NCBI GenBank assembly: GCA_046116545.1
Contig: CP175956.1
Location: forward strand, 513,734 to 577,733
DNA length: 64,000 nucleotides
Reading direction: 5' to 3'
From: Candidatus Moraniibacteriota bacterium
GTDB taxonomy: Bacteria; Patescibacteriota; Minisyncoccia; Moranbacterales; GCA-2747515
Below the pieces are notes generated by a model. It ran no database searches. It worked only from the letters and a program-made list of their open reading frames with translations, and had not been told where the DNA came from. The position numbers and the translations under genes are program-made. Position 1 is the stretch's first letter. Every line of letters starts with the position of its first letter. Positions 8,083-26,735 of this stretch are shown one piece after another.

Positions 8083-10770
8083 TTAATAAGCTACATCAAC
8101 TGTATTTTTAGCAGAGGCTGTATTTCCAGCATCATCAGTTAATTTAACTTCTATTTCAAGCGTTGAATTATTCTGGTCTTCGGGTATTTTATATTTATAA
8201 GTAGAATCTTTTGATTCATGAACTTTTTTACCCTTAACCCAATACTCTATTTTATCGATGTCATATTCAGTTTCTGGAGTTACTTTTATCGTGAGTGTAT
8301 CAGATTCAACTTTGCTTGGAACTGACAATGATATTTTTGCAGTATATTTTTCAAAATCATCCTTCTCGCAATCATCAGGTTCTTCGTCAAATATTATTTT
8401 GTCATCTTCTTCTTTCTTGTAATATTTTAGTACAGCTTTTTCCCAGTTTTTATACTGAGGATCATCTTTAGGATCATCTGGTCGTTCTCCTTGTGGATCA
8501 TCTTTAATTACAAAATATAAAATATTATGAACATCAGCAAAAATTCGTCTTTTCTTTTTGCTATCTGGACAGTATTTATTTGCTTTACAATACTCATCGT
8601 CATCGTCAGGAAGTTCACATACTTCTATTTTGTCCATAGCAGGTAATTCTCCATCCAAGATATCTTTATCTGTTTTATTTTCATCTTTATCATATTTTGG
8701 AAATTCTTTTCCAGATATTTCTGGATAAGCTTCACGTATAAAATCACGGAATATGGGTCCAGAGGCATTAGCTCCCACACCACCACTATTCATGGAGGAA
8801 TTGTCATTATTGCCACTCCAGACTCCAACAGCAACTTCTGGAGTATATCCCATGGTCCAAGCATCTCGATTTTCATTAGTTGTACCAGTTTTAGCAGCAA
8901 CTGGCCTATCATCAAATTTAAGAGGATTATTTGCACCAAATGCATCAACTCTATACTTATTTGTAGAAAGTATGTGTGACAGCATTCCGACATATTTTTC
9001 ATCAACTATACGTTCACCCTCTGAATCAGTAGCTTCTTCAATGAGTTCACCATTTTTATCTTCTATCTTTAGAATGGATCTTTTAGTTTGGCGCACTCCA
9101 TTATTTGCAAATACAGAAAAGGCAGCCGTGTGATCAAGTAGTTTAACTTCGCCTCCACCAAGAACAAGTGAAAGTCCATATCTATCAGGATCATTCAAGC
9201 TTGTTATTCCAAGTTGTTTTGCAAATTCAATAACCTCTTTTGAATTTGCTAAGTAAAGAGTTTTTACAGCTGGTATATTTAGAGACATTCCAAGTGCTTC
9301 TTTCATTTTTAGAGGTCCCCGGAAGGTTCCATCATAATTTTGAGGACTATAATCATCTTCACCATTGCTAAAGTTTGTTTCAACATCATAAAGAATTGTT
9401 TCTGGTGTATAGCCTTTTTTAAATGCATAAATATAGGCATAAGGTTTAAATGATGAGCCTGGCTGTCTATCTCTTACAGAAACATTTACTTGTCCATCTA
9501 TTTCTTCATCAAAATAGTCTCTAGAGCCAACCATTGTCACTATGTCTCCATTCGAAGGATCAATAGCTGTTAGAGCAGAGTTTTCAGCGTTATATTTTTC
9601 TTTATTTTCAAAGGCTTTATCATGAACAATTCTTTCAGCTATCTGCTGTTTATCCCAATCAAGTGTTGTAATAACTGTTAAACCTTCTTTTTCCAAATAT
9701 TCATTTCCATACTTTTCTTCCAAAAAATCACGTACGTACATTACAAAATGGGGTGCTTTAATATTTTCTGTATTTTTAGTTAGTTTTGCAAAAACATCTT
9801 CTTTTTTTGCACTTTCAGCAGCCTCTGGGGAAATGTATCCAAGACTAACCATTTGATCCAAAGCGTATTCTTGGCGAGTTTTTAAGCGCTCTCTGTAGGA
9901 ACCATAAGGAGAATATTTTGAAGGTGCTTTTGGTAGGGAAGCTAAAATAGTCGCTTCATCTAGTGTGAGGTCTTTTGCATGTTTTCCGAAAAATGTTTGA
10001 GCAGCTGCTTCAATGCCATATGCATTTGAACCATATGGAATTTCATTTAGATACATGCCTATTATGTCATCTTTTGAAAATTTGAGTTCAATTTCAACGG
10101 CAAGTATTAATTCTTTTATTTTTCTAGAAAGGCTACGTTCATTTGTAAGGATGGAATTTTTTACAAACTGTTGCGTAATGGTAGAACCACCACGTCCGCC
10201 TCCAATGTTAAACACATTTGATAAAACAGCATTAGCAACACCTTTAACATCAAAACCAGGGTGATTATAAAAATTATGATCTTCTAGAGAGATTGTTGCT
10301 TGTTTTGCAACGAGTGGAATTTCATCATGAGGAATGATAGTTCGCTTTTCTTCACCATGAATATCATAAAGAAGTACAGTTCCAGTGCGGTCATAAATTT
10401 TTGTGCTTTCATCAATTGTGCGTGTATTAACTTTTCCTGGTTCAGGTAAATCTTTTGCAAAATAAGCAAAAATACCAATAGCAGCTAGTAGTCCAATAGC
10501 AAATAAAACAGCAAAAATTTTTGTAGCTAGTAATGCCCATTTCCTCCAACTATTTTCAGTGTTATTTTTTCTCTTGTTTTTCCTTTTCTTTTTTATCATA
10601 GAAGTTTGAGAAATATTAAGTTGCGTAGTATTTGGATAAACTTTAGATTGTTCTTTTTTGAATTTACCAAAAAACAATGCAGTTGATTTTTTGCATTTAG
10701 TTACTAATTTAGTTACCGAATTTACTCGAGGTTTTTTATCAAAATCACGAGGAGAATACATTTTTTTCAT
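8083..10770 (-). CDS. Class A penicillin-binding protein (glycosyltransferase + transpeptidase) with C-terminal Ig-like extension
   Basis: 895 aa. N-terminal TM. GT51 motifs (EDHNFYNHPG, GGSTITQQ). Transpeptidase SSFKP and KTGTT motifs. Confidence 0.85.
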   Translation of the reverse strand: MKKMYSPRDFDKKPRVNSVTKLVTKCKKSTALFFGKFKKEQSKVYPNTTQLNISQTSMIKKKRKNKRKNNTENSWRKWALLATKIFAVLFAIGLLAAIGIFAYFAKDLPEPGKVNTRTIDESTKIYDRTGTVLLYDIHGEEKRTIIPHDEIPLVAKQATISLEDHNFYNHPGFDVKGVANAVLSNVFNIGGGRGGSTITQQFVKNSILTNERSLSRKIKELILAVEIELKFSKDDIIGMYLNEIPYGSNAYGIEAAAQTFFGKHAKDLTLDEATILASLPKAPSKYSPYGSYRERLKTRQEYALDQMVSLGYISPEAAESAKKEDVFAKLTKNTENIKAPHFVMYVRDFLEEKYGNEYLEKEGLTVITTLDWDKQQIAERIVHDKAFENKEKYNAENSALTAIDPSNGDIVTMVGSRDYFDEEIDGQVNVSVRDRQPGSSFKPYAYIYAFKKGYTPETILYDVETNFSNGEDDYSPQNYDGTFRGPLKMKEALGMSLNIPAVKTLYLANSKEVIEFAKQLGITSLNDPDRYGLSLVLGGGEVKLLDHTAAFSVFANNGVRQTKRSILKIEDKNGELIEEATDSEGERIVDEKYVGMLSHILSTNKYRVDAFGANNPLKFDDRPVAAKTGTTNENRDAWTMGYTPEVAVGVWSGNNDNSSMNSGGVGANASGPIFRDFIREAYPEISGKEFPKYDKDENKTDKDILDGELPAMDKIEVCELPDDDDEYCKANKYCPDSKKKRRIFADVHNILYFVIKDDPQGERPDDPKDDPQYKNWEKAVLKYYKKEEDDKIIFDEEPDDCEKDDFEKYTAKISLSVPSKVESDTLTIKVTPETEYDIDKIEYWVKGKKVHESKDSTYKYKIPEDQNNSTLEIEVKLTDDAGNTASAKNTVDVAY

Positions 10771-10869: not shown

Positions 10870-11691
10870 TTAATTTTTTTCTGTAATATTTAGGGGGTGT
10901 CTTTTTGAAAGTAGATTGTCTAATAATACTTTTGCCAAATTAATATTGGTTTGTGTAAAATAACTATTGAATAAACATGTTCTATTTATTTCTATCAAAA
11001 AAAATCCAGATTCAGTAATTGCCAAATCTAGCCCAATAAGGTCAAAGGTGTTTTTTTTTATTATTTTTTGAGTAAAATTTAATATATCTAAGGATAATAT
11101 TTCTGAACCTATGACTTTAACTTTGGAGGTTAAAGTTTTTGAACTTTTAACAGTTGCCTCAGGTAATACCTCATTGCAAACTACATATATACGATATTCT
11201 TTTTGTATATGCATTTTATCTTGAATAATATATTTGTTTAAATTCATTTCATCCAATTCAGTTGAATCAAAGAAAATACCTTCAGCTCTACCAGAAATTC
11301 TTTCTTTTGTAATACGATTTTTATTATCTGCATCAGTGATCGAATTTAGTAATTGAGTTTTTGGCATAAAATCAGTAAATATTTGATATTGTAACCACTT
11401 ATCTTCAAAATAAATATCATCAATAGTTTTTAAATTATCAATAATATAGGCATCTTTTTTATTCTTTAATAAAATATCAAAAAGAGATGTTGCAGCATTT
11501 TTATCAAGAACACGGAAATGATATCCAAAGTATATGTAATCATAAGTGTTGTTAATTAATTTTTCTTTCAAATAAGTAGAGCTTTCATGAAAAAAATAAA
11601 AATCTATATCAACTACTGCTTGCATTTCTTGAGTTATATATAGAGGTAATGATAAATCGTTAATTCCAGTTATTAGCAGCATTTTTTTCAT
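10870..11691 (-). CDS. Divergent ATP-grasp-like ligase (hypothetical)
   Basis: 273 aa. C-terminal ...EYRIYVVCNEV...FDLIGLDLAITESGFFLIEINRTC... resembles the ATP-grasp C-domain (E/R..., GxD...lEvN). Last gene of the ATP-grasp block. Confidence 0.4.
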   Translation of the reverse strand: MKKMLLITGINDLSLPLYITQEMQAVVDIDFYFFHESSTYLKEKLINNTYDYIYFGYHFRVLDKNAATSLFDILLKNKKDAYIIDNLKTIDDIYFEDKWLQYQIFTDFMPKTQLLNSITDADNKNRITKERISGRAEGIFFDSTELDEMNLNKYIIQDKMHIQKEYRIYVVCNEVLPEATVKSSKTLTSKVKVIGSEILSLDILNFTQKIIKKNTFDLIGLDLAITESGFFLIEINRTCLFNSYFTQTNINLAKVLLDNLLSKRHPLNITEKN

Positions 11692-11837: not shown

Positions 11838-12788
11838 TTAAGATGAAAGTGTTTTTTTAAATAATTCTATAATAGCTGTATAAACCCGTTCTCTTTCCTC
11901 GAATTGTTTTTCAGTAAAAAATAAACCAGGCATACTATTTAATTCAATTAGCCAAGGCTTTTGATTTTCATCAAACATTAAATCTATTGTATATATTTTA
12001 TTTTTAAATGTAGAGAGTGTATTTTGTACATCAGTAACTAATGTGTTAACACTGGTAGGCAATTGTTCATTTTGTAGTATCTTCATTGAACCGCCCTGGG
12101 ATAAATTAGCAAGGAAAGATCCTTTTTTAGGAATTCTTATGTAACTATAAATCAAGTCATTTTCTATAAAAACGAGTCGCAAATCATGTACAGAATCTGT
12201 AATCCCAGTTATTCCATTAGTGCTGTCTATAAATTCTTGTGCCAAGATTGGAAAGGGTAGTTCAACATTATCGATTTCATTTTTTTGTAAAATATATACA
12301 TTTTTACCTCCACTATCTGAAGATGTTTTTAAAACAACCTTTTCAGTTTTAATGCTTTGAAGGATGCTTTTTAAATCAGTAATATTTAAAGCCTTATAGT
12401 GTTTTTTAGTGTGTTGTGGAAAAAGTAAGCTTGTAAATAATTTATTATCTATAAGATTTGTAAATTCAACATCATTTATAAGGGGAAATATTTCATTGAG
12501 TGATGATTTAAATAAATCAGTTTCAGATTTTGAGCTAGTTTTATCATAAATAAGATCTGGTTTTATATTATAATCACGTATCCAAGAGCCATTTTTATAT
12601 GTCCAAACATATAAAAAAATATTATTTTTATTATCATACCATTTATAAGAAGCTCTATATAATTGAATTCCATGTTGGTTAGCTAATTCATATAGATATT
12701 CATAACAAAGAGTATACCCACTAGTCATATCTGCAAAAGCTGGTCCATTCCAATCCTTTTCACCAAATAATATTAGTACTTTTTTCAT
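11838..12788 (-). CDS. ATP-grasp ligase (RimK/YheCD-like), paralog 2
   Basis: 316 aa. ...ILAQEFIDS...HDLRLVFIEND..YSYIRIPKKGSFLANLSQGGSMKIL...YTIDLMFDENQKPWLIELNSMPGL. Paralogous to 12793..13734. Confidence 0.65.
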   Translation of the reverse strand: MKKVLILFGEKDWNGPAFADMTSGYTLCYEYLYELANQHGIQLYRASYKWYDNKNNIFLYVWTYKNGSWIRDYNIKPDLIYDKTSSKSETDLFKSSLNEIFPLINDVEFTNLIDNKLFTSLLFPQHTKKHYKALNITDLKSILQSIKTEKVVLKTSSDSGGKNVYILQKNEIDNVELPFPILAQEFIDSTNGITGITDSVHDLRLVFIENDLIYSYIRIPKKGSFLANLSQGGSMKILQNEQLPTSVNTLVTDVQNTLSTFKNKIYTIDLMFDENQKPWLIELNSMPGLFFTEKQFEERERVYTAIIELFKKTLSS

Positions 12789-12792
12789 AGTT

Positions 12793-13734
12793 TTATTTAA
12801 AAAATGTTAATAAATTTTCATAAAATTCACTTTGATAAGGTGCTTCACTTTGTTCTAATGTTAATCCAGGTCTAGAATTCATTTCTATAAGCCATAAGTT
12901 ATTATCATTATCAAACATACAATCAATAGCATATATTTTATTTGTAGCATCAATATTTTCTACATTTTGTATAATTTTATTGATAAATTTGTTGATGTCA
13001 TTATTTTGTAAAAGTTCTTTTATTGGAATTACTTTTAGTGTAGCGCCTGTTGATACATTTGCAATACGAGTGTCTTTTTTTGGTATTCGAGCAAATGCGT
13101 AAAAAGGTGTTTGATTTCTAACTATAACTCGGATATCATGATATCCATCAATAAATTCATTCTTCGCTTTTGATGAATCCATAAATTCCTGAGCTAAAAT
13201 AGGGAATATATTGTTTGATATAATATCATTGGCGACAGCTTCTTTTTTTGAAATAAAAATACCAGAACCACCAGATTGACTTAGGGGTTTCACAATAATA
13301 TCAGATGTTTGTAGTGCTATAATTTTAGTTACTTCACTAGGCATATTGATAACAATTGTTTTTGCAGAAAATTCTTCAAAAAAATCAAATGTAAGTGATT
13401 TATTACTTAGGATTTTACTTAATGTCAAATTATTATAAAAAGTGTAATCAGTTGCTATTAATTGCCTAGTCAGCATCTCGCTGGAGTTAATGTAATAGGG
13501 CGATTTGTCATAGATTACATCTGGTGTTATGTTTTTTTTCCAAAGCCAGTTATCATTAATAAAAAATTGTGCTTGTGTAAATGAATTACTTTGAGTATCA
13601 TAATATGATATCGGTGCACGACACAGTATTATATTATTTTTTGCAAAGTATGTATATAAGGCGCTATAACCCAGAGGATCCTTTGTTGGAGATTTAGAAG
13701 GTTCTCCACCAAAAAGAATTAGTATTGTTTGCAT
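12793..13734 (-). CDS. ATP-grasp ligase (RimK/YheCD-like), paralog 1
   Basis: 313 aa. ...KPLSQSGGSGIF...ILAQEFMDS...HDIRVIVRN..FYAFARIPKKDTRIANVSTGATLKVI...YAIDCMFDNDNNLWLIEMNSRPGL. Confidence 0.65.
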   Translation of the reverse strand: MQTILILFGGEPSKSPTKDPLGYSALYTYFAKNNIILCRAPISYYDTQSNSFTQAQFFINDNWLWKKNITPDVIYDKSPYYINSSEMLTRQLIATDYTFYNNLTLSKILSNKSLTFDFFEEFSAKTIVINMPSEVTKIIALQTSDIIVKPLSQSGGSGIFISKKEAVANDIISNNIFPILAQEFMDSSKAKNEFIDGYHDIRVIVRNQTPFYAFARIPKKDTRIANVSTGATLKVIPIKELLQNNDINKFINKIIQNVENIDATNKIYAIDCMFDNDNNLWLIEMNSRPGLTLEQSEAPYQSEFYENLLTFFK

Positions 13735-13751: not shown

Positions 13752-15155
13752 TTACTTACTAACATCAACTAAAAATTGATGTAGATTTCGTTTGCCAATA
13801 ATTATATCATATTTCATATCACTTCTATCAATAATGTTTACTTGAGCAGGAATTATTTTTTTATCCATTGTAAATTTAGTCTTTACAATAGGGCGAATTG
13901 AGGAGCCACTTGATGCAAAAATTACTGCCACGTCAACTAAATCAGGGATTTTATTTTCAGCTAGAATAGCTTTTTTAATAGACTTTTCGTTTTTTGGAGT
14001 AATCTCGTATTTAGTTAAATCAATTTTATCAAATTCATTTATTACATGTTCAAATCCGAGTGATTTAGCAAGTTTTGTGTCTATTGATGTTGAATAAGCA
14101 CCAGTATCAATTTTTGCTTTTGTTTTAATCTCTGTATTATTTTTTCCGATAATTTTAATTTCTTCAATAGAGCCAATGACATTTTTACCAGACATTCCTT
14201 CAACCTCTTCTTCAATTTCACCACCAAAGAGATTTTTGCCAACAGCTGCTCCACGTATTGCAGATTTAATTTTTAGTCCTTCTACACGTTCAAGTCGACG
14301 TTTAAGTCCTGCCATATTTGCGACTTGGATAGAAAGTCCTGGTCGGGCATTAAGTTCAAGAAATACAGGTCCATTATCTCTATCAATTGCAACATCAGCA
14401 CCTAAAAAACCAAGTCCGGAGGCTTCTTGTGCTTTGATGGCGAGTATTAACATTTCATCCCAGTATGGAATTTTGATACCAGAAAGCAGTAAACGTGTTC
14501 CAGGTACATACTCTATAATTTTTGACTTTCCTTGTACGGCAGTTGTCGTTGTACCTCTAGCCATATCAATTCCAACACCAACACCACCTTGTTGTAAGTT
14601 TGCTTTACCTCCAGATTCTTTTGTGGGAAGTCGAAGCATTGCCATTACGGGTACTTTATTATATATAACAATACGAATATCTGGAATACCTTTATAGGCA
14701 TATGGACGAAACTCTTTTGATAATTTGAGACGTTCTTCAAAAAAAGCTATATCAGGGGTATTTGAAAGGGAATACTCACCATCTAAAATATGTCCTATAT
14801 GAGTTATCAAATCTTCTTTTGTGACTGTTTTGCCATTTCCTTTAATCCAGATGTCATCAGTTCCTTTTTTGCGACCATAAATAACTATAATACCATCACC
14901 ACCAAGACCTTTATTTGGTTTTATAACAAAACTTGGAGGTAGAATACTCCAATCAAAACTTTCTAATGTACGTTTAGAAGAAATTTGTGCAATAAGTCTT
15001 GGGACAGGGACGCCTGCTTTTTTGAGCATACGTTTCGAACGAATCTTGTCATCTGCAAGTCGCTTTGCTTTTTTAAGGTTGTGTGGGCGAATATATGTTA
15101 AATTTCGGGCATTCATCCCAAGTATGTTTTTGCTTGCGCGTATTGATTCAAACAT
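13752..15155 (-). CDS. ATP-grasp ligase (alpha-L-glutamate-ligase-related / ATPgrasp_ST-like) fused to C-terminal retropepsin-like aspartyl-protease domain
   Basis: 467 aa. N-terminal ILGMNARNLTYIRPHN motif, then an ATP-grasp core (...GGDGIIV...FEERL...DIRIVIY...RLPTKESGGKANLQQGGVGV...FLGADVAIDRDNGPVFLELNARPGL). C-terminal ~130 aa with KIDTGAYSTSID (D-T-G-A), compatible with a DUF785 / 'Zn_protease'-type retropepsin domain. Confidence 0.6.
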   Translation of the reverse strand: MFESIRASKNILGMNARNLTYIRPHNLKKAKRLADDKIRSKRMLKKAGVPVPRLIAQISSKRTLESFDWSILPPSFVIKPNKGLGGDGIIVIYGRKKGTDDIWIKGNGKTVTKEDLITHIGHILDGEYSLSNTPDIAFFEERLKLSKEFRPYAYKGIPDIRIVIYNKVPVMAMLRLPTKESGGKANLQQGGVGVGIDMARGTTTTAVQGKSKIIEYVPGTRLLLSGIKIPYWDEMLILAIKAQEASGLGFLGADVAIDRDNGPVFLELNARPGLSIQVANMAGLKRRLERVEGLKIKSAIRGAAVGKNLFGGEIEEEVEGMSGKNVIGSIEEIKIIGKNNTEIKTKAKIDTGAYSTSIDTKLAKSLGFEHVINEFDKIDLTKYEITPKNEKSIKKAILAENKIPDLVDVAVIFASSGSSIRPIVKTKFTMDKKIIPAQVNIIDRSDMKYDIIIGKRNLHQFLVDVSK

Positions 15156-15162
15156 GGGATTT

Positions 15163-15855
15163 TTATTTAATCTTATTTATAACATTGTGAAATCTTAGGT
15201 ACTCATTAAAACGAAGACCTGTCCATTTACCAATGAAAAGATTTATAGGAATAATTAATAAAACAGTAAGTGGGTGGACAAGTATAAGACTTATCATGTA
15301 TCTACCAATAGCAGTAGTTGGTGAAAGAATTGTATATCCAATAAGCGCTATAATTAGCGTTTCAACTGCTAATATAATTGCAGTTTTGTTTCCTTTTTCA
15401 ATTTGTACAGTAACAAATTTTTCAACAAGCATTATTATGATGATAATCGGGAAAATGGCAGTTGATGCAAAACCAGTCCTTCCAAAATATCCAGCAAGTG
15501 CAAGTGTTAAAAGGACGGAAAAGGATACTACAGTTAAGTTTATAGCAACTCTAGGAAGATAAAGTAAACGTAATTTTTTCAATACAAAACGCATACCCAT
15601 ACCAACACAAAGGACTATTGCATAAATAGCAACAGCATATTTAATATCCCAAAAGCTATCTTGTGCAATAAATACAAAAGCAATTGTAATAATAGATGGT
15701 GTATAAATACCAAATGCCTGTATACCAACTATTTGACGCAAAACAACAACGATTGTTATTACTATAGGAAATAACAATAGTAGAGTAATAGTATCTAGAT
15801 TAAGTTGTTGTGCGAGTAAAAATTGTATAATAGGACTGAAGTCAGTTACATTCAT
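15163..15855 (-). CDS. 7-TM integral membrane protein (7TM_transglut-like, no transglutaminase domain)
   Basis: 230 aa with seven hydrophobic helices. 8-nt gap to the ATP-grasp/protease fusion gene. Matches the 7TM partner of ATPgrasp_ST systems by context and topology only. Confidence 0.45.
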   Translation of the reverse strand: MNVTDFSPIIQFLLAQQLNLDTITLLLLFPIVITIVVVLRQIVGIQAFGIYTPSIITIAFVFIAQDSFWDIKYAVAIYAIVLCVGMGMRFVLKKLRLLYLPRVAINLTVVSFSVLLTLALAGYFGRTGFASTAIFPIIIIIMLVEKFVTVQIEKGNKTAIILAVETLIIALIGYTILSPTTAIGRYMISLILVHPLTVLLIIPINLFIGKWTGLRFNEYLRFHNVINKIK

Positions 15856-15882
15856 AGCTTTTGTTATTAAATAGTTATAATT

Positions 15883-16383
15883 CTATTTTGTAATTGTATT
15901 TAAATATTTTCTAGAATTAATGTGACATAGTGCTACAGCAAGTGCATCAGCTGTGTCATCGGGTTTTGGAATACTCTTTAATTTTAACACACTTTTTATC
16001 ATTTTTTGCATTTGCGTTTTGTCAGCTCGGCCATAACCAGTAAGTGATTGTTTTATCTGAAGCGGTGTGTATTCTGCAATTTTTAAACCATCTCTAAAGC
16101 AAGTATTCATAATGACACCACGGGCCTGTGCAACACTTATGACAGTTTTTGCATTTTTAAAATAAAACAAGTCTTCAACTGCAGCTTCAGCAGGTTTGTA
16201 TTTTTTTAAAATAGCAAGTACGTTATCAGTAATTTCTGATAATCTAACAACATCAGACAGTTCTTTTGCTGTCTCGATGTGACCGTATGCAATAACATTA
16301 TTTTTTGTTCCACTATCATTACAGTCAATTATACCCCAACCAACAATAGCAGTACCAGGATCAATCCCAAGTATTCTAATCAT
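15883..16383 (-). CDS. ruvC: Holliday junction resolvase RuvC
   Basis: 166 aa. MIRILGIDPGTAIVGWGII... RNase H-like RuvC start. Confidence 0.85.
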   Translation of the reverse strand: MIRILGIDPGTAIVGWGIIDCNDSGTKNNVIAYGHIETAKELSDVVRLSEITDNVLAILKKYKPAEAAVEDLFYFKNAKTVISVAQARGVIMNTCFRDGLKIAEYTPLQIKQSLTGYGRADKTQMQKMIKSVLKLKSIPKPDDTADALAVALCHINSRKYLNTITK

Positions 16384-16416
16384 ATTTTTATCTTAGAATG
16401 TAGTATTTTAGCACTT

Positions 16417-17124
16417 TTAGGCAACATTGTCAAAGATTTCATTAACATCATCTAGCTCTTCAAGTATTTCGTAAAGATCATCATATTTTTCTGTATCTTC
16501 AGTATTTAGAGTTACTTGTTGTGTTGGATTATATATTAATTTTGCTTCATTTATGGATTCAGCTTCTTTTTCAATTCCTTTTAAGACATTATGCAGACTT
16601 GTAGGACTAGTTATTATTGTTAGATTTGAGTTTTCTTCAAATACATCTTCAGCACCAGCCTCTATAGCAAGTAATTCAGCAGTTTCTATGTCTTTTGGTG
16701 TAATTGATATATAGCCAACAAAATCAAATTGAAAACTTACGCTGCCACTAGGCACAAATTTACCATTATTTTTTTTGAGTGCAGTTTTAACGTCTGTTAA
16801 AGCACGGTTAGTATTATCAGTTGCGCATGTGATAATCATCATTGCCCCACCAGGACCCATACCTTCATAGGTGACTTCTTCAATTCTAGCACTATCATCA
16901 CCAGAGCCTTTTTTCATAGCACGTTCGATATTGTCTTTTGGCATATTAGCTTTTTTTGCTTGGTCTATAGCTAATTTTAAAGCACTATTCATTTCTGGAT
17001 CATTATCTCCATTTTGTACAGCTACCATGATAGCTTTCGCAATACGAGAGAAAACTTTAGATCGTTTAGCATCTGTAACACCTTTTTTATGTTTAATTGT
17101 TGACCATTTACTATGTCCTGACAT
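16417..17124 (-). CDS. yebC: YebC/PmpR family DNA-binding transcriptional regulator
   Basis: 235 aa. MSGHSKWSTIKHKKG... canonical N-terminus. Confidence 0.9.
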   Translation of the reverse strand: MSGHSKWSTIKHKKGVTDAKRSKVFSRIAKAIMVAVQNGDNDPEMNSALKLAIDQAKKANMPKDNIERAMKKGSGDDSARIEEVTYEGMGPGGAMMIITCATDNTNRALTDVKTALKKNNGKFVPSGSVSFQFDFVGYISITPKDIETAELLAIEAGAEDVFEENSNLTIITSPTSLHNVLKGIEKEAESINEAKLIYNPTQQVTLNTEDTEKYDDLYEILEELDDVNEIFDNVA

Positions 17125-17288
17125 AAGTTAGTAGAAGATTAAATATTTTAAAAGTGATTATATCATCTCATTTTTTAGTACTTTTTGCAATTATAGTGTT
17201 GATTTTTTGGACATTATAGCATATGATGTATAATCAGTTTCTAAAAGGAATTATTTGTACTTGAAAAATTAAATAAGGGGAATGTGAG

Positions 17289-18047
17289 ATGAATAGAAAA
17301 ATTGGATTTTCAACAGGTGTTATGTTTCATGTATATAATGCAATGTCAGCTAATATTATTAATATCAGTTCTGATATAGGTTGTGCAGCGTTGGAATTAA
17401 ATGTTCATACATTTCCAGAACATGTTAATTCACTACTAGGACTAAGTGATGATAATGTTATGTTTCGACAACAGTTATCTTGTGCGAATATGGATTCTTT
17501 GTCGTGTCATTTGCCATGCAATATTAATTATATATGCAAGGTACATGATGATGTAATTAGTGCAAAAAGGTCCTTGCAAAATATCGGTATATTCAGTGGT
17601 GTAACAAAACTTGTTAATTATGTTGTGGTACATCCAGATCTTGTTGTGGATTGGGACATTTTTGATGATTTTCCAATTGCTGTAGCAATTGAAAATATGG
17701 ATAATCGTAAAAATACTTTTCGTACACTTCAGGAGTTGCGAGATTTTTTTCAAAAATATCCACAATTCAGATTAGTATTTGATGTACAGCATTGGGTTGT
17801 TAATGATGGTGCTATAAGTGATATCCCAGCTATTATTGCTGAATTTGGTGACAGATTAGCAGGTATTCACCTTAGTGGCGTAGGATCTGATAAATATCAT
17901 GTTCCTGTATGTAGAACGAGACAGCGAGACCTTGTAGAATCACTACAAAACTTGCCAGCACATATCCCAATCATTCTGGAAGGTGTTTGTGAGGATGTTG
18001 ATGAGATGAAGCGTGAATTTGCTTATGTAACAAATATTTTAATATAA
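17289..18047 (+). CDS. Xylose-isomerase-like TIM-barrel protein (AP endonuclease family 2 / Nfo-like)
   Basis: 252 aa. ...HLPCNINY..., IAVAIENMDNRKNTFRTLQELRDFF (cf. Nfo LENTAG...), ...HLSG...DKYHVPV...IPIILEG. Local GC looks higher than neighbours. Confidence 0.4.
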   Translation: MNRKIGFSTGVMFHVYNAMSANIINISSDIGCAALELNVHTFPEHVNSLLGLSDDNVMFRQQLSCANMDSLSCHLPCNINYICKVHDDVISAKRSLQNIGIFSGVTKLVNYVVVHPDLVVDWDIFDDFPIAVAIENMDNRKNTFRTLQELRDFFQKYPQFRLVFDVQHWVVNDGAISDIPAIIAEFGDRLAGIHLSGVGSDKYHVPVCRTRQRDLVESLQNLPAHIPIILEGVCEDVDEMKREFAYVTNILI

Positions 18048-18060
18048 GGAGGAGATAAAA

Positions 18061-18363
18061 ATGAACGAGCATGAAAAAAGCATGGAAGGTCTAGTCATCA
18101 GAGATGACACAGAGACGAGACTTGAGGGATCTAAGGCTAAAATTAAAATATTACAGAATCATATGGCAGATCAGGATGAGCAATTACGTCAGTTTGTTGT
18201 TGCGGTGCGGCACATTCGTGTGGTTCTGGGAAGTTTGCCAAAAGATTGGCATGCAAAGGTGAGTGTGGGTTTTTCTCCAGTAAAGCAAGTTGAGGAAATA
18301 GAAGATATCCTTTCTGAATTGAAGGCTGACAGTTCTGATTGGATACCTCCCAATGAAGATTAA
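18061..18363 (+). CDS. Hypothetical protein
   Basis: 100-aa ORF with a strong SD (aaggaggag) 8 nt upstream. Coupled to the preceding gene. Confidence 0.4.
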   Translation: MNEHEKSMEGLVIRDDTETRLEGSKAKIKILQNHMADQDEQLRQFVVAVRHIRVVLGSLPKDWHAKVSVGFSPVKQVEEIEDILSELKADSSDWIPPNED

Positions 18364-18390: not shown

Positions 18391-18424
18391 AAACCAACAA
18401 AGATAAATCTTTGTTGGTTTTTAT
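18391..18424. terminator. Bidirectional rho-independent terminator
   Basis: aaaccaacaaagataaatctttgttggttttt hairpin between convergent genes. Confidence 0.6.
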
Positions 18425-21384
18425 TTACATAAGTCAAATTTTTGTGAAGTGGGTGTTGTAAAAAGATAGGGCTTTTCACATGGTTGGGTTGGTAAATCTA
18501 TTTGTGTAGGCGTATAAGAATATGCCAAGACTTGATTTAATTTCAATGTTTCAGAGAAAGATTGGGCTATTAGAATAGTTTTATGCAAAAGAGAGTTTAT
18601 ATTTTGCAGAAGTGTTACAAACAAGTTTGAATTTGTCTGTACAATATCTCGTGAAGTATTGTTGGAAGAATTGTAAACAGCATTTATGGCGACTTTATTT
18701 TCCAAAATTTGTTGAGAAAACATTTTTTCATTTTTAATTGCTTGAGAAATAATTTGTTGAGTTTGATGTTGTTTTTCTAAATTAACTGGAATGGTCCATG
18801 TCCAGATACCATCAATTTTTTCAAATGATGAATTGTCTTGTATAGATATGTCTTTATGACCATATTTTTGTTTATCGGCAACGGATCCATTTGGACGACG
18901 AATTTCTATAACACCTGTTTTGTTAGGGAGACTGATAGCTGTATATTTTTTGGTTATTTTTTTAGTTTTTCCAGGCTTTAATATTAATTTGTCATAAATT
19001 GGATGATTCACTAAAGTTTTTTCTTTTACTCCTGTGGCGATGCTCCAATTTTGGAGATTAATTTTTTCTTTACTTTCATTTTTTATAATAATATATTCAA
19101 CACCACTATCTTTTCCGCTAGGATTTGGAACTATTTTTGTAATTTCAATTTTGTGTTTGGGGTATTTTTTGACGGTAACAGTGAATTTTTTTATTATTTC
19201 TTCACTTTTATCTTGAATTCGTAGGTTGCCATGATAAGTACCAGTTTTTGTGTATCTGTGTCGAGTTTTCCATAAATAACTTTTACGACCATCACCAAAG
19301 TCCCAACGAACTTTTAATTTCTCGCTATCTTTGTCAGTAGCTTTTGTTTTAAAATTAGCATAAACATTTTTATAAGAATTTTTATCTATATCAAATTTTG
19401 TAATGGTTGGAAGATTATTAAAAACATTCTTTTTGCTAGGTGTTAAATATTTGCTCCATCGCCAACTTTTTGAATCAGTATTGTAATTGTAAGAAATATC
19501 TTCTCGGGATGATTTATAAGATATTGAGCTTACTATTTTTTCGTTTGGTGCTGTGAGTGAGACGGTTTCATTGCTATTATTTAGTGCAAAAGAAAAATTT
19601 TTCCTGTAAATTGTGAAAAATGATTTTGGTTCAATGTACTGTTTAGTTGGAAATGTGTAGGTGCCAGTCTTGGAAGAATCTTTTAGCATCCAATTTTTAA
19701 GGTTAATTTTAATGTTGTTTGGATTATAAATTTCTATAAATTCATCAGTTTTTTCAACACCACTTGGATTTGGAAGTATCTCATTTAATAATAATTTAGG
19801 ATATTTTATAGTGCGTGGATCAATTGCATTTTTTGTACCAGGAGTTGGTTCTGCATTATACCAATATTCAGCATAATTTATAGACTTGCCTTTTTGAGAA
19901 TCATTGTATTTGATTTGTGAAGTAATGGAACAGTTAGGTGCAATGAGTGAAATATTATCTCCAGAATTATTTAGAGTGAACCTGAAATGGTCTTTTGTAA
20001 GTTTGATATAAAGTAAGGTTGTGTCTGGGTTTTTGTTTTCTAATGTTCCAGAAATTGTTGAGGAATCTGTTAATTTCCAACCATCTAAAGATACTTTGTC
20101 AGGATTGTAAAGTTCAATAAATTCTTCTGTTTCTGTGCAATGGGGAGTATCTTTTTTGCAAGGATTAGGATAAATTTCATTTATACGAACAGTACTAGAT
20201 AAATTTGTAGGCAAATAATCACCAGGAAAAGGACATTTGTTTATATGAAAATCAGCTTTATTGTTGTCAGTGTCAATATATTTACCATCTTTTTTATTTC
20301 GCTCAATACTTTCATTTTTGTTTGGACTTTGAGTTGATGTTTCTTCATATAAACAAGTATTTCCGAAGCCAACTTTATCAATGATATTGTCGTTATCATC
20401 GTATAAAATAATCGTTGAATCATTAGTTATGGTAGCACTTTGACTAGAGAATGTAATACTATTAGTCCAAGCAGGCTTAGGATTATCCTTATGTGTGATT
20501 ATGAGATATTTGTGAGCTTCGATCACGCCAGTAAAAGCGCGTGAAGATATAAGATTTTTATCTTTTTTTATTTTATCACACTTATTTTTATCTGTTGTTC
20601 TAGTTATATTTCTTTTCAAACTATAACCATTGAGAATGATATTTTTATCAGTTGTATTATATAATTCTATGTATTCCTCATGATGTTTTGAGTTGGAGGC
20701 GGAAGTATCCAATAATATTTCAGTAATGAGGATAGTTTTTTCTATAATTGGAATATCTTCTAGTGGAATCTCAGATTTATTTTTTGTAAGAGGTTTTGTG
20801 ATAGTTTGTATAGTTTCTTTACTTGTACTTGTAGGTTCAAAATTTATGTCTGTATCACTAGCATCTTGTTTCATTGGAGGAGTTTCAGTATATGCCTCGA
20901 TAGAGTGCTCTGTAGAGATATCTTTTTGTTTAGGCAGGCTTTCTTTTGAAATAGATTCATTTTCAATAGTCTTTTCTTTTTCTTGTGATGTAGTAGATTC
21001 ATTTTGAGATGTGGAAATAGAGTCACAATCCGATTCTACTGTCTTTGTTTCAGATTTATCAGCAGTAATTTTTGTGGATTTGGAGGGTTTTTCATCTTTT
21101 GTAATCGATTTTTTATCTGTATCTTTTTTTGTAGTGGACAGACATGTCTGTCCACTACAGTTATCAACATCTTCTATGTCAGAAGTAGTTATGTCAGATT
21201 TGGATTTCTCACTATTTTTGGTAGAAATAGGCTTTGCATCAGTGGAGTTAGTGGTAGTCTCATCAAGAGAAAAAACACTATGTGAAAACAAAGAAAAAAG
21301 ACAAAATAATAATAAAATACCTTTAAGAAGTGTAGGGGATAATATGGTAAAAACTTTTTTCATACAAAAATAAGTTAGCAACAA
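18421..21384 (-). CDS. Large secreted surface protein with four lamin-tail-domain (LTD) repeats, a PKD domain and a Ser/Thr-rich low-complexity linker
   Basis: 987 aa. Signal peptide, then a long S/T/K/D/E-rich region. Repeated ...NEI(L/Y)PNP...(E/D)(F/Y)IE(I/L)YN(P/T)... (LTD) occurs four times. WDFGDGRKS...GTYHGNLRIQD is PKD-like. Confidence 0.7.
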   Translation of the reverse strand: MLLTYFCMKKVFTILSPTLLKGILLLFCLFSLFSHSVFSLDETTTNSTDAKPISTKNSEKSKSDITTSDIEDVDNCSGQTCLSTTKKDTDKKSITKDEKPSKSTKITADKSETKTVESDCDSISTSQNESTTSQEKEKTIENESISKESLPKQKDISTEHSIEAYTETPPMKQDASDTDINFEPTSTSKETIQTITKPLTKNKSEIPLEDIPIIEKTILITEILLDTSASNSKHHEEYIELYNTTDKNIILNGYSLKRNITRTTDKNKCDKIKKDKNLISSRAFTGVIEAHKYLIITHKDNPKPAWTNSITFSSQSATITNDSTIILYDDNDNIIDKVGFGNTCLYEETSTQSPNKNESIERNKKDGKYIDTDNNKADFHINKCPFPGDYLPTNLSSTVRINEIYPNPCKKDTPHCTETEEFIELYNPDKVSLDGWKLTDSSTISGTLENKNPDTTLLYIKLTKDHFRFTLNNSGDNISLIAPNCSITSQIKYNDSQKGKSINYAEYWYNAEPTPGTKNAIDPRTIKYPKLLLNEILPNPSGVEKTDEFIEIYNPNNIKINLKNWMLKDSSKTGTYTFPTKQYIEPKSFFTIYRKNFSFALNNSNETVSLTAPNEKIVSSISYKSSREDISYNYNTDSKSWRWSKYLTPSKKNVFNNLPTITKFDIDKNSYKNVYANFKTKATDKDSEKLKVRWDFGDGRKSYLWKTRHRYTKTGTYHGNLRIQDKSEEIIKKFTVTVKKYPKHKIEITKIVPNPSGKDSGVEYIIIKNESKEKINLQNWSIATGVKEKTLVNHPIYDKLILKPGKTKKITKKYTAISLPNKTGVIEIRRPNGSVADKQKYGHKDISIQDNSSFEKIDGIWTWTIPVNLEKQHQTQQIISQAIKNEKMFSQQILENKVAINAVYNSSNNTSRDIVQTNSNLFVTLLQNINSLLHKTILIAQSFSETLKLNQVLAYSYTPTQIDLPTQPCEKPYLFTTPTSQKFDLCK

Positions 21385-23711: not shown

Positions 23712-26700
23712 TTATAGCGTCGTAACTCGCTTTACTTCTTCTAGTGTTGTTATGCCTTCGAGTGCTTTGAGAATTGCATCTTGTTCCATTGTGAGCATTC
23801 CATTTTCGACGGCTTTTTTCTTGATGTCTGGTGCTAATGATCCGTGAGCTATCATTTCTCGTAAATCATCATCCATTATAAATATTTCACTAATAACTGT
23901 TCTTCCTTTATAGCCAATTCCATTGCACTCCTCACATTTTCCAGGAGTATATAATTTGTCTTGTTGTGGTTGTTCTATTGTTACTTTTGGAGAAATACTT
24001 TCTAAAACGTTTGTAATTATTGATTTGTCAGTTTCAGATATAGGGGTTTCTATTTTACAACTACATAGTACACGGACAAGTCGTTGCGCGATAAACGCAT
24101 TTGTTGCGGTTGTGAGATCATCAGTGCTAACGCCTAGATTTATAAGTCTTTGAATTGCGCCGACAGCATCATTTGTATGTAGTGAAGATATAAGTAGATG
24201 TCCTGTAAGAGCCGCATTAATAGCAGTTGTGGCAGTTTCATCATCACGAATCTCACCAACTAACAAGATGTCAGGATCTTGACGTAATAGAGCTCGGAGA
24301 GCATTGCCAAATGTATAACCAGCTTCTTTGTCTATCTGCGTTTGCAATATGCCATCCAGTTGATATTCAATTGGATTTTCAATTGTAATAATTTTTATAT
24401 CGGGACTACTTATTTCACTTAGCACACTATAAAGAGTAGTTGTTTTACCAGAGCCAGTTGGTCCAGTATTCAACACTACACCATAAGGTTTTGTGACTTG
24501 AGACATTATTCTGTCTAGATTATATTTACGAATTCCTATTGAATGAATATCAAGATTAACGTTATCTCTATTTAACAGTCTAAGTACAATTGTTTCACCA
24601 TAACCTCCAACAATAATTGAAACACGAACATCAACATTTAATTCTGTTTCATCTTCTTTTTCATAATTAATACGAAAACGACTGTCAGAGACACCTTGAC
24701 GTATTGTTGTTGGGATATCACTTATGATTTTTACTTTACTTAATAACAGTGGGTAGCTCATAAGAGGTATTTTGGTGATTGATTGAAGTACTCCATCAAC
24801 ACGCATTCTGATATCAACATATTCTTCTTGAGGTTCTATGTGAATATCACTAGATTTAAGAATTGCTCCATAAGACAGTATTGTAGGAAGCATATCTTTG
24901 TCCTCAGTATCATTGATTGTTTTATTCATCTCATCAAAGTTGCCAGCATTTTCTTCAGCTAGTTTTTGTAGGGAGTATTTAACGAAAATACCACGAGATA
25001 GTGACTGAGACATTAGGTCATCATATAATGATTCGATTAATTCACCTTCGGTTGTAACTCGCATAACCTCTTCAATCGTAGTAACTCCTTCAAGTGCTTT
25101 TAGAACACCATCTTGCGTCATTGTTACGAAGCCTTCTTCGATAGCTTCTTTCATCATGTCGGTTTCACTGGCTAAGTCTAAAATAAGTTGTTCAATTTTA
25201 TTAGACATTGTTAGTATTTCAAAAATACCTATACGTCCTTTATATCCAGTTCCATGACATTTATCACAGCCAATAGCACGATAAATCTCCTTTATTTCTT
25301 TTGGAACAGTTAGCTTTGCCTTTGGAGAAATTAGTGAAATCATTTTCATGAAAGTGTTTTTTGTTTCTTGGGCTGGCTCATAAGATTCTTTGCAGTGTTC
25401 ACATAGAGTTCGTACAAGTCGTTGGGCCATGAAAATATTTGTTGCAGAAGGAATGAGCGTAGGCTTAACACCTAACTCCATCAATCTAGGGACAGTTGCA
25501 ATGGCATTATTTGTATGAAGTGTTGAAAGTACAAGATGTCCAGTTAGGGCAGCATTGATAGCCACATCAGCAGTTTCATCATCACGAATCTCACCAACTA
25601 ATACAACATCCGGATCTTGACGCACAACAGCGCGTAATCCCTTGGAAAATGTATAACCACGATCCTTTGCTACTTGAGTCTGTGATATTCCATCTAGTTG
25701 ATATTCAATAGGGTCTTCAATTGTAATAATTTTTGTTTCTGGAGTTTTAATATGATTTATTAGTGTGTATAGGGTTGTTGTCTTACCAGAACCAGTTGGT
25801 CCAGTTGTGAGTAGCATTCCAGCATTCTTAGCAATATTTTTTTGAATATCTTCAAATGCTTTCCCCTTTAATCCGAGGCTATTAATATCAACGGTAACAC
25901 TATCACTTCGCAAAAGTCGCATCACGAGACCTTCAAATTGTTTCCCAGGAATGGTAGATACACGAACATCAACACGTGTTTCAGGATTTAGCATAAATTC
26001 AAAATGTCCATCTTGTGCAAGATCACGTACATTTATTTTCATTTTACTCATTAACTTGATACGGTTGATGAGTAATTGATAGACATGTTCAGGTATCTCA
26101 ACAATTTTTTGTAAGACACCGTCGATACGATAACGTATGCGAACTGTTTCTCTCTGAGGCTCTATGTGAACATCACTAGCTCCAAGCTTTAATGCACCAG
26201 AAAATAGAATATTTAAAATTTCAGTAGTTGGTAAGGCATCAGCATTATCTTTTAGTTTTAATAATTTTCCAAGACTATCTTCAAAGGCTTCTAAATCCTC
26301 TCCTTCAAGAGTTAGTCGCATGGTATCAATGGAGTCTATAAAATACGCAGTTTTATATTGTCGCAATAATTTATCTTTAGAGGCTTCTGATATTACAAAT
26401 AATTCAGTTTGCCAGCCCTGCCGTGTTTCAAAGTCAGTTATAAAATCTTGCAATGTAGTGCTTTCAGGTGTAGAAGTTGCTAATTTTAACATTTTTCCAA
26501 TACGATGAAATACAAAAATATTATATTTTTTTGCATCATCTTCTGAAATTATAGACACATCTTCGTTGGCAACAGGTATAATATTTAAATCAATATAAGG
26601 AAGCTCAGCTTTTTTTGCTTTTCGTACAGCAAAATCTTCTTCACCTTTAGATTTGAGTTGTTTTAGTGTGCGATCAGTTTCTTTTGCATGCAAAGCATCA

Positions 26701-26735
26701 GTATTTCCTTTGTGTTGTTTTATTTTTATAACCAT
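23712..26735 (-). CDS. Tandem-duplicated type II secretion / type IV pilus assembly ATPase (two complete GspE/PilB modules in one polypeptide)
   Basis: 1007 aa. Two Walker A boxes (TTGPTGSGKTTTLYTL and NTGPTGSGKTTTLYSV). Two Walker B/Asp boxes (VLVGEIRDDETA and LLVGEIRDDETA). Two His boxes (LSTLHTN and ISSLHTN). Two tetracysteine clusters (CEHC...CDKC and CSCK...CEEC). Each module is preceded by a GspE N2-like domain. Confidence 0.8.
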   Translation of the reverse strand: MVIKIKQHKGNTDALHAKETDRTLKQLKSKGEEDFAVRKAKKAELPYIDLNIIPVANEDVSIISEDDAKKYNIFVFHRIGKMLKLATSTPESTTLQDFITDFETRQGWQTELFVISEASKDKLLRQYKTAYFIDSIDTMRLTLEGEDLEAFEDSLGKLLKLKDNADALPTTEILNILFSGALKLGASDVHIEPQRETVRIRYRIDGVLQKIVEIPEHVYQLLINRIKLMSKMKINVRDLAQDGHFEFMLNPETRVDVRVSTIPGKQFEGLVMRLLRSDSVTVDINSLGLKGKAFEDIQKNIAKNAGMLLTTGPTGSGKTTTLYTLINHIKTPETKIITIEDPIEYQLDGISQTQVAKDRGYTFSKGLRAVVRQDPDVVLVGEIRDDETADVAINAALTGHLVLSTLHTNNAIATVPRLMELGVKPTLIPSATNIFMAQRLVRTLCEHCKESYEPAQETKNTFMKMISLISPKAKLTVPKEIKEIYRAIGCDKCHGTGYKGRIGIFEILTMSNKIEQLILDLASETDMMKEAIEEGFVTMTQDGVLKALEGVTTIEEVMRVTTEGELIESLYDDLMSQSLSRGIFVKYSLQKLAEENAGNFDEMNKTINDTEDKDMLPTILSYGAILKSSDIHIEPQEEYVDIRMRVDGVLQSITKIPLMSYPLLLSKVKIISDIPTTIRQGVSDSRFRINYEKEDETELNVDVRVSIIVGGYGETIVLRLLNRDNVNLDIHSIGIRKYNLDRIMSQVTKPYGVVLNTGPTGSGKTTTLYSVLSEISSPDIKIITIENPIEYQLDGILQTQIDKEAGYTFGNALRALLRQDPDILLVGEIRDDETATTAINAALTGHLLISSLHTNDAVGAIQRLINLGVSTDDLTTATNAFIAQRLVRVLCSCKIETPISETDKSIITNVLESISPKVTIEQPQQDKLYTPGKCEECNGIGYKGRTVISEIFIMDDDLREMIAHGSLAPDIKKKAVENGMLTMEQDAILKALEGITTLEEVKRVTTL

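Follow-up and report, generated by a model that had tools for sequence, protein, structure and literature searches.

A RloC-like ATP-grasp ligase joined to a RimB/RloA-like retropepsin domain in Moranbacteria, a candidate cytoplasmic writer-eraser of the Rlo/Rim type

A single polypeptide in which a RloC-like ATP-grasp ligase is followed by a RimB/RloA-like retropepsin domain is encoded in a stretch of 64,000 nucleotides from Candidatus Moraniibacteriota bacterium (contig CP175956.1, positions 513,734 to 577,733; this whole stretch is called the window here, and positions are counted from its first letter). The fusion has been kept, with active sites that appear intact, across an order of reduced-genome bacteria and beside a seven-transmembrane (7TM) partner in 79/80 loci. 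We put the probability at roughly 60% that it is a bifunctional cytoplasmic writer-eraser of an add-and-trim system of the Rlo/Rim type. The locus is a fused, cytoplasmic, transglutaminase-less Rlo-type variant and not a new kind of system. In Pseudomonas the Rlo system affects osmotic tolerance, biofilm formation and antibiotic sensitivity, and it is a puzzle how its single pathway can combine a ligase of the cytoplasm with a protease that is secreted. The fusion of the same type of ligase to the same type of protease argues that the product of the ligase is the substrate of the protease. With its transglutaminase-less 7TM protein and one soluble bifunctional enzyme, the locus offers a compact two-gene system for biochemical reconstitution.

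The fusion gene and its conservation

The gene and the elements of its product were located as follows.

13752..15155, minus strand: ligase-protease fusion gene, 467 amino acids (aa), RloC-like ATP-grasp plus RimB/RloA-like retropepsin
14280..15107, minus strand: ATPgrasp_ST ligase domain (fusion aa 17-292; PF14397, TIGR02291)
14199..14228, minus strand: conserved Glu-rich interdomain linker F310-G-G-E-I-E-E-E-V-E319, with low predicted local distance difference test (pLDDT) values at aa 315-329
13758..14180, minus strand: retropepsin-like aspartic protease domain (PF05618, RimB/RloA-type; fusion aa 326-466)
14097..14108, minus strand: catalytic motif D350-T-G-A353, preceded by K348, as read from the DNA; it aligns to K-L-D-T-G-A of RloA

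The list of open reading frames (ORFs) and a reading of the DNA gave an ATG-to-stop ORF of 467 aa, free of frameshifts and internal stops. All the motifs quoted in an earlier note on this DNA were found in it, for the ligase GGDGIIV (aa 84-90), DIRIVIY (aa 159-165) and GADVAIDRDNGPVFLELNARPGL (aa 252-274), and for the protease KIDTGAYSTSID (aa 348-359) and a second hydrophobic-Gly segment, IIIGKRN (aa 451-457). That note had claimed a single polypeptide made of an ATPgrasp_ST ligase and a retropepsin-like domain, which was confirmed by the one ORF and by two Pfam matches above their cut-offs. PF14397 (ATPgrasp_ST) passed its gathering cut-off of 31.4 bits with 226.6 bits (E 4e-67) at aa 17-292, a match spanning profile positions 2-277 of 278, and PF05618 matched aa 326-466 with 42.1 bits against a cut-off of 27 (E 1e-10; profile positions 1-130 of 138). 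The latter family is now named 'RimB-like' in Pfam, having earlier been misnamed 'ATP-dependent zinc protease', 'Zn_protease' or DUF785. Judged by profile matches, the nearest ligase family by far is TIGR02291 of NCBIfam, 'alpha-L-glutamate ligase-like', which matched aa 8-310 (profile positions 9-313 of 317) at a score just under equivalog level; the RimK model of Pfam gave only a short match (PF08443; 42 residues, aa 234-275). Over aa 322-466 the best NCBIfam matches were the models of the retropepsins RloA1-3 (NF052262-4). Taken together, the Pfam and NCBIfam matches lie well outside what chance would give. No hydrophobic segment was present (the maximum over 19-residue Kyte-Doolittle windows was 1.44), and the protein is predicted to be cytoplasmic, having no signal peptide and no cysteines.

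The earlier note had also proposed to look for the same architecture in databases, and it proved to be general among close relatives. A search of 5.8 billion clustered proteins listed 120 relatives (90%-identity clusters; 63-100% identity), nearly all of about 469 aa with both Pfam domains, and those with a named source came from metagenome-assembled genomes of Moranbacteria/Parcubacteria. The two-domain architecture was present in at least 118 of these 120 closest clusters and the motif K[IV]DTGA in 118, the exceptions to the motif being one truncated sequence of 338 aa and one full-length protein of 470 aa. GTDB was searched with one genome per species and the best 80 loci were taken, which together with the window protein made up the alignment used below (n = 81). 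The fusion was full-length in 80/80 of these loci (query residues 1-467; 57-91% identity). Most of the loci were labelled Moraniibacteriota or Patescibacteria, the closest one (91% identity) belonging to a Candidatus Moraniibacteriota genome; the G+C content of the window was about 31%.

Since the window is probably metagenome-assembled, one could suspect that two adjacent genes had been run together through an error in sequencing, assembly or gene calling, and nothing else spoke for such an artefact. The chance of it is practically nil given that the ORF is uninterrupted and that a single fusion ORF of 464-530 aa was present in all 80 species-level genomes, which come from many studies, and in more than 110 independent protein clusters; the full-length fusion in every one of the GTDB loci excludes it.

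Some contigs carried the labels 'uncultured Micavibrio', 'Bdellovibrionales' or 'Bathyarchaeia archaeon' (L009, L010, L016, L021, L029, others, and L079). These contigs had synteny of the Moranbacteria type and fusion genes 59-77% identical, and the labels are probably taxonomic mislabels of bins.

Active sites of the ligase and the retropepsin domain

In the ligase domain K79, D254, E267 and N269 were invariant (81/81 species) and R271 was kept in 79/81. ATP-grasp enzymes bind ATP and Mg with a Lys in the central strand, an Asp ... Glu-x-Asn triad and then an Arg, and from general knowledge of the fold we take these five residues of the fusion to have those roles. The full-length model was of moderate quality (pLDDT 73), and confidence was low in its linker (aa 315-329). 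The closest solved folds to its ligase part were RimK, LysX and ArgX, RimK being the nearest. These three enzymes ligate amino acids onto C-terminal carboxylates of peptides or proteins.

In the protease domain D350, T351, G352, A353, R421, R444 and G454 were invariant in the 81 sequences, position 348 was K in 76 and R in 5, and the C-terminal hydrophobic-hydrophobic-Gly motif (I-I-G454) was invariant or conservatively kept. The mean identity of this domain to the window protein was only about 51%, with a minimum of 35%. A phmmer search of the whole fusion protein gave no match among PDB sequences, and RloA structures were reached only by profiles built from homologues: the profile of the C-terminal domain found RloA 9g58 (E 2e-8) and 9g59 (8e-8) and Legionella Lpg0085 2pma (9e-6), with only weak sequence matches to Ddi1 and ApRick (E 0.035-0.23). 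In the profile alignments K348, R421 and R444 aligned with K26, R94 and R117 of 9g58, and their offsets from the catalytic Asp (-2, +66 and +89) equal those of K46, R114 and R137 in RloA of P. aeruginosa. The latter three residues coordinate polyglutamate, and R114A or R137A abolishes function (Lormand et al., PMC12239564).

The AlphaFold2 (AF2) model of the protease domain alone was better (pLDDT 86; predicted template modelling score, pTM, 0.80) and was compared with the PDB using Foldseek. All 35 matches at E <= 1e-3 (ranks 1-35) were retropepsins, among them RloA 9g58, Lpg0085 2pma, RloA2 9g59, Ddi1, Rickettsia ApRick and the HIV-1 and foamy-virus proteases, with template modelling (TM) scores of 0.43-0.68 when normalised by target length. 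The retropepsin fold that had been proposed for the C-terminal region was thus present in the model, and the catalytic Asp of DTGA was invariant across the alignment. As far as sequence conservation can tell, both active sites of the fusion are intact, with catalytic and channel residues under purifying selection. Each fusion chain carries one DTG, so the retropepsin domain must pair with a second copy, and dimerisation would be expected on this count.

Comparison with Rlo and Rim systems and the proposed mechanism

The membrane partner of the fusion lies immediately upstream.

15163..15855, minus strand: 230-aa 7TM membrane protein, membrane half of RloB (PF14402), 7-nt gap to the fusion

This protein matched PF14402 (E 9e-26; 91.3 bits against a cut-off of 25; profile positions 55-247 of 248) and had multiple hydrophobic segments in its hydropathy profile. 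Its match to the RloB model NF052267 was confined to positions 312-506 of 508, which indicates that it corresponds to RloB without the N-terminal periplasmic inactive transglutaminase domain. The gene was directly upstream of the fusion in all but one of the 80 GTDB loci, the exception being a contig end.

The system that resembles the locus most is rloABC of Pseudomonas aeruginosa and P. fluorescens, which encodes a secreted retropepsin RloA, a membrane protein RloB and a cytoplasmic ATP-grasp protein RloC (Lormand et al., mBio 2025, PMC12239564). RloA has a signal peptide, a disulfide and the motif DTGA, is a dimer and cleaves at least 8 contiguous Glu, and RloB consists of an inactive transglutaminase and a 7TM part (PMC12239564). 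Deletion of rloB or rloC rescues a triple RloA-protease mutant (PMC12239564), and this suppression assigns the three proteins, protease, ligase and membrane protein, to a single pathway. The same three families are found in the window, i.e. an ATPgrasp_ST/TIGR02291 ligase, a PF14402 7TM protein and a PF05618 retropepsin with DTGA, and the polyglutamate-binding Lys and Arg residues of RloA align in the window protein. The differences are that ligase and protease form one chain in the window, that the protease is cytoplasmic and has neither signal peptide nor disulfide Cys, that the 7TM protein has no periplasmic inactive-transglutaminase domain as RloB does, that one to three extra ATP-grasp ligases follow in loci of the window type, that all NCBIfam Rlo models score below cut-off for the window proteins and that the host is a Patescibacterium, outside the phyla named as main Rlo hosts (PMC12239564).

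RimB is a cytoplasmic retropepsin which removes the polyglutamate tails put on RpsF by RimK; a run of at least 6 contiguous Glu (5 in one context) is required, and binding of RimB raises the ATPase activity and polyglutamate synthesis of RimK (PMC11957791). The Rim system (with RimA) shares with the window a cytoplasmic ATP-grasp ligase and a cytoplasmic retropepsin, and RimK and RimB interact physically, whereas the Rim genes are separate, the substrate is the C-terminus of RpsF and there is no membrane partner. The earlier note held that ligase and protease are separate genes in described systems, a view that is outdated since the publication in 2025 (Journal of Biological Chemistry) of the natural hybrid RimBK (D. 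psychrophila DP2392), in which a RimB domain (aa 1-163) stands N-terminal of RimK (PMC11957791). RimBK is proteolytically active on polyglutamate tails, as is its isolated RimB domain, and has been found chiefly in Flavobacteriales and Rhodobacterales (PMC11957791). Like the window protein it is a single cytoplasmic chain of a PF05618 retropepsin and a peptide-ligating ATP-grasp domain. It differs in domain order (the protease is C-terminal in the window protein), in its ligase, which is of RimK type and not ATPgrasp_ST/RloC type, and in that no 7TM partner has been reported for it. Given the different taxa, the two hybrids are evidently products of independent fusion events, so that a ligase-retropepsin fusion arose at least twice, as RimBK and as the window type. 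By analogy only, the TTL/TTLL enzymes with MATCAP/CCP are also comparable, since an ATP-grasp enzyme adds residues to protein tails and a dedicated peptidase removes them; they are eukaryotic and belong to other families of ligases, MATCAP is absent from the window protein, and the comparison does not imply that the substrates are homologous.

No paper on a RloC-type ligase fused to a retropepsin was found by a literature search that did not reach Iyer et al. 2009, the work in which ATPgrasp_ST and 7TM_transglut were reportedly defined, and a graspetide survey covering Candidate Phyla Radiation (CPR) bacteria makes no mention of this module. The fusion is already visible in public domain annotations and, as far as we searched, has gone undiscussed.

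From these comparisons we propose the following mechanism. The RloC-like ligase domain would add amino acids, most likely alpha-linked L-glutamate, onto a carboxylate acceptor at the expense of ATP, giving an acidic oligo- or polypeptide chain; glutamate is suggested as the building block by the family name and by the conserved polyglutamate-binding residues. The retropepsin domains of two copies would pair to form the active site, a step that oligomerisation of the ligase could help, and the paired protease would cut acidic chains, whether to fix how long they are or to set them free. That the protease acts on the product of its own ligase is suggested by the fusion itself, by the Rim precedent and by Rlo genetics, and an obligate coupling of ligation and proteolysis, as the earlier note supposed, is a reasonable inference from the fusion. 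The co-transcribed 7TM protein probably tethers the enzyme to the membrane or carries the product through it, and the same operon holds up to three extra ATP-grasp ligases.

A number of observations weigh against the reading of the fusion as an Rlo/Rim-type writer-eraser. The TIGR02291 match reached 292.5 bits and remained below the curated cut-off of 314.2, the three RloA models NF052262-4, whose cut-offs are 210, 250 and 280 bits, gave 42.3, 28.3 and 25.5, and the 7TM protein scored 76 bits against 900 for RloB NF052267, so that orthology to the Rlo proteins is not established. RloC-type ligases have no measured amino-acid specificity (PMC12239564), and RimBK gave no glutamylation of P. fluorescens RpsF (PMC11957791). 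In no frame of the 64-kb window was there an ORF with a run of at least 4 Glu or at least 6 acidic residues, and no small precursor-peptide ORF, as a graspetide-type reading would expect, was present in the intergenic gaps of the operon. The segment D359-G417 was modelled as helices, at variance with the beta-hairpin or long disordered flap of RloA, and access of the substrate may therefore differ from that in RloA.

The last point on this side comes from distant relatives. When 1.84 billion cluster representatives were searched exhaustively, 2159 relatives came up at E <= 1e-3, the best 150 of which were inspected, and in 83 of these 150 a retropepsin-like domain followed the ligase. The DTG was decayed in many distant fusions (to DTS, DPG, NTG, NLN and others; P0138-P0212), mostly forms of about 790 aa with a MATCAP domain, with the domain and the Glu-rich linker still kept. 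The domains with such a decayed motif are probably inactive retropepsins with another role, and their retention indicates that a retropepsin domain can persist without catalysis.

It could be argued from this that the retropepsin domain is mainly non-proteolytic in the window protein as well and serves as a dimerisation, product-binding or ligase-activating module, the more so as binding of RimB up-regulates the ATPase and polyglutamate synthesis of RimK (PMC11957791) and as so many distant fused relatives lacking DTG retain both domain and linker. We regard this as unlikely. DTGA, K348, R421, R444 and G454 were kept in the 81 species despite a domain identity of 51%, which is the pattern expected of a working active site, K[IV]DTGA was retained in nearly all the close clusters (118/120), and the RimB domain of RimBK is active in isolation (PMC11957791).

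The distant relatives also differed in architecture. Besides two-domain proteins (about 430-500 aa) there were triple proteins of about 790 aa whose C-terminal part is a metallocarboxypeptidase (PF08014 MATCAP), proteins that had gained a YdjC domain or a second ATP-grasp domain, and fusions of 7TM and ligase. PF08014 MATCAP is the family of the tubulin tyrosine carboxypeptidase. Two CPR triple fusions of ATPgrasp_ST, retropepsin-like and PF08014 MATCAP domains, P0132 (L084, 3474-5876) and P0140 (L086, 5498-7864), directly followed a 7TM gene, and L084 additionally had a stand-alone MATCAP gene and three further ATP-grasp genes. In P0253 (538 aa) Pfam showed a PF14402 7TM domain joined straight to ATPgrasp_ST, with no protease domain, and this fusion is independent evidence for joint action of membrane protein and ligase. 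From nothing more than the position of its ligase match, P0264 (576 aa) is probably built in the same way.

The interdomain linker was strongly conserved, with a consensus of LFGGEIEEExE in which F310, G311, G312, E315 and E319 were invariant in the alignment. The earlier note had raised the possibility of self-processing, in which the protease would cut this Glu-rich linker and free a separate ligase and protease. Such a polyprotein would be compatible with the strong conservation of the acidic LFGGEIEEEVE and with its low confidence in the model, where it is probably flexible, and retroviral proteases are known to excise themselves. We nevertheless consider it very unlikely, and the claim was not supported: the longest run of contiguous Glu in the linker is 3, compared with the at least 6 required by RimB (5 in one context) and the at least 8 required by RloA, RimBK was purified and assayed as the hybrid (PMC11957791), and the motif is kept in fused relatives whose DTG has decayed, hence it is not solely a cleavage site. 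It is confined to fused relatives, unfused RloC-like proteins ending variably soon after the ligase core. A structural or regulatory role between the two domains is more likely for the linker than one as a site of cleavage; docking of the acidic linker in the basic channel of the protease would be speculation. A self-glutamylated tail would have been suggested if unfused RloC-like proteins ended in this Glu-rich motif, which they do not.

Genomic neighbourhood

The remaining genes around the fusion were as follows.

12793..13734, minus strand: second ATP-grasp ligase, 313 aa, RimK/GSH-S-like (Pfam, NCBIfam), 17 nt downstream of the fusion
11838..12788, minus strand: third ATP-grasp ligase, 316 aa, 31% identical paralogue of the second, 4-nt gap
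10870..11691, minus strand: fourth, divergent ATP-grasp-like gene, 273 aa, weak R2K/RimK similarity, 146-nt gap from the third
16417-17124, minus strand: YebC
15883-16383, minus strand: RuvC
8083-10770, minus strand: class A penicillin-binding protein (PBP)

The second and third ATP-grasp proteins had no match among PDB sequences. The fourth matched PF18299 below cut-off (E 0.0055) and TIGR00768 with E 2.7e-5, a homologue of it was present in about 15 of the 80 related loci, and its membership in the module is uncertain. At least one further ATP-grasp gene (of AG2, AG3 or AG4 type) lay downstream of the fusion in about 59/80 loci, the number ranging from 0 to 3. Given this occurrence and the 79/80 for the membrane partner, the 7TM and fusion genes form a constant core to which the extra ligases are variable accessories. 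A terminator scan found no terminator between the genes of the module, and promoter-like sites in the window numbered 49 with 42.5 expected.

In some Moranbacteria (L040, L052, L057, L061 and L066) the accessory ATP-grasp genes took the form of one double-length ORF of 592-663 aa downstream of the fusion, an apparent tandem fusion of two ligases.

If the core and its accessories are taken together, the 7TM protein, the ligase-retropepsin (with or without MATCAP) and the cluster of several ligases could constitute a Patescibacteria-wide, vertically inherited writer-eraser of a non-ribosomal acidic peptide at the membrane. This wider proposal is rather doubtful at present. Were it true, the machine would make either an exported polymer or a tail attached to a protein or to a component of the envelope; the fusion would act as a Rosetta stone which shows that the Rlo/RimB retropepsins have the product of RloC as their physiological substrate; and the secreted arrangement of Pseudomonas would derive from a cytoplasmic one.

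Most of the 80 GTDB loci retained the frame of YebC-RuvC on one side and PBP1A on the other. The location of the module between RuvC and a class A PBP (Transgly plus Transpeptidase) would fit a role in the envelope and not on a polyglutamate chain. In such a role a precursor linked to the wall or membrane would carry a short peptide that the ligases make or modify and that the protease then edits. This would agree with the FemAB and Mur ligase genes near the module in L001, with the several different ATP-grasp ligases per operon, which suggest that more than one kind of residue is added, and with the phenotypes of Pseudomonas Rlo mutants in cell shape and in the response to ampicillin and hypo-osmotic conditions (PMC12239564). 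On the other hand, adjacency to the PBP may be mere conserved synteny within one order, the module of L086 adjoins ribosomal protein genes and MreB instead, and the polyglutamate-binding residues of RloA are kept in the window protease. An envelope role of this kind therefore seems improbable to us, and the Rlo/Rim-type writer-eraser remains the preferred reading.

In one Moranbacteria contig of 1.5 Mb (L003) the module (14512-17407) was located about 5 kb from dnaN and dnaA, near the replication origin region.

Three further observations concern genes of the window beyond YebC. The gene at 23712..26735 (minus strand) encodes a protein of 1007 aa with two T2SSE (PilB/GspE-type) stretches and MshEN, which has the look of an ATPase for secretion or pili that was duplicated within one chain and has a 1005-aa counterpart in L001. 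The gene at 18421..21384 (minus strand; TTG start) encodes 987 aa with a hydrophobic N-terminus, four lamin-tail-domain (LTD) stretches and a PKD domain; L001 and L003 have LTD/PKD proteins in synteny with it, and its product is probably a surface protein. Between this LTD gene and YebC two ORFs are found on the plus strand (17289..18363), one of 252 aa with a weak match to a xylose-isomerase-like TIM barrel and one of 100 aa without a match. The counterpart interval in L001 and L003 contains only short unannotated ORFs on the opposite strand and no TIM-barrel counterpart, and the pair may be a lineage-specific insertion.

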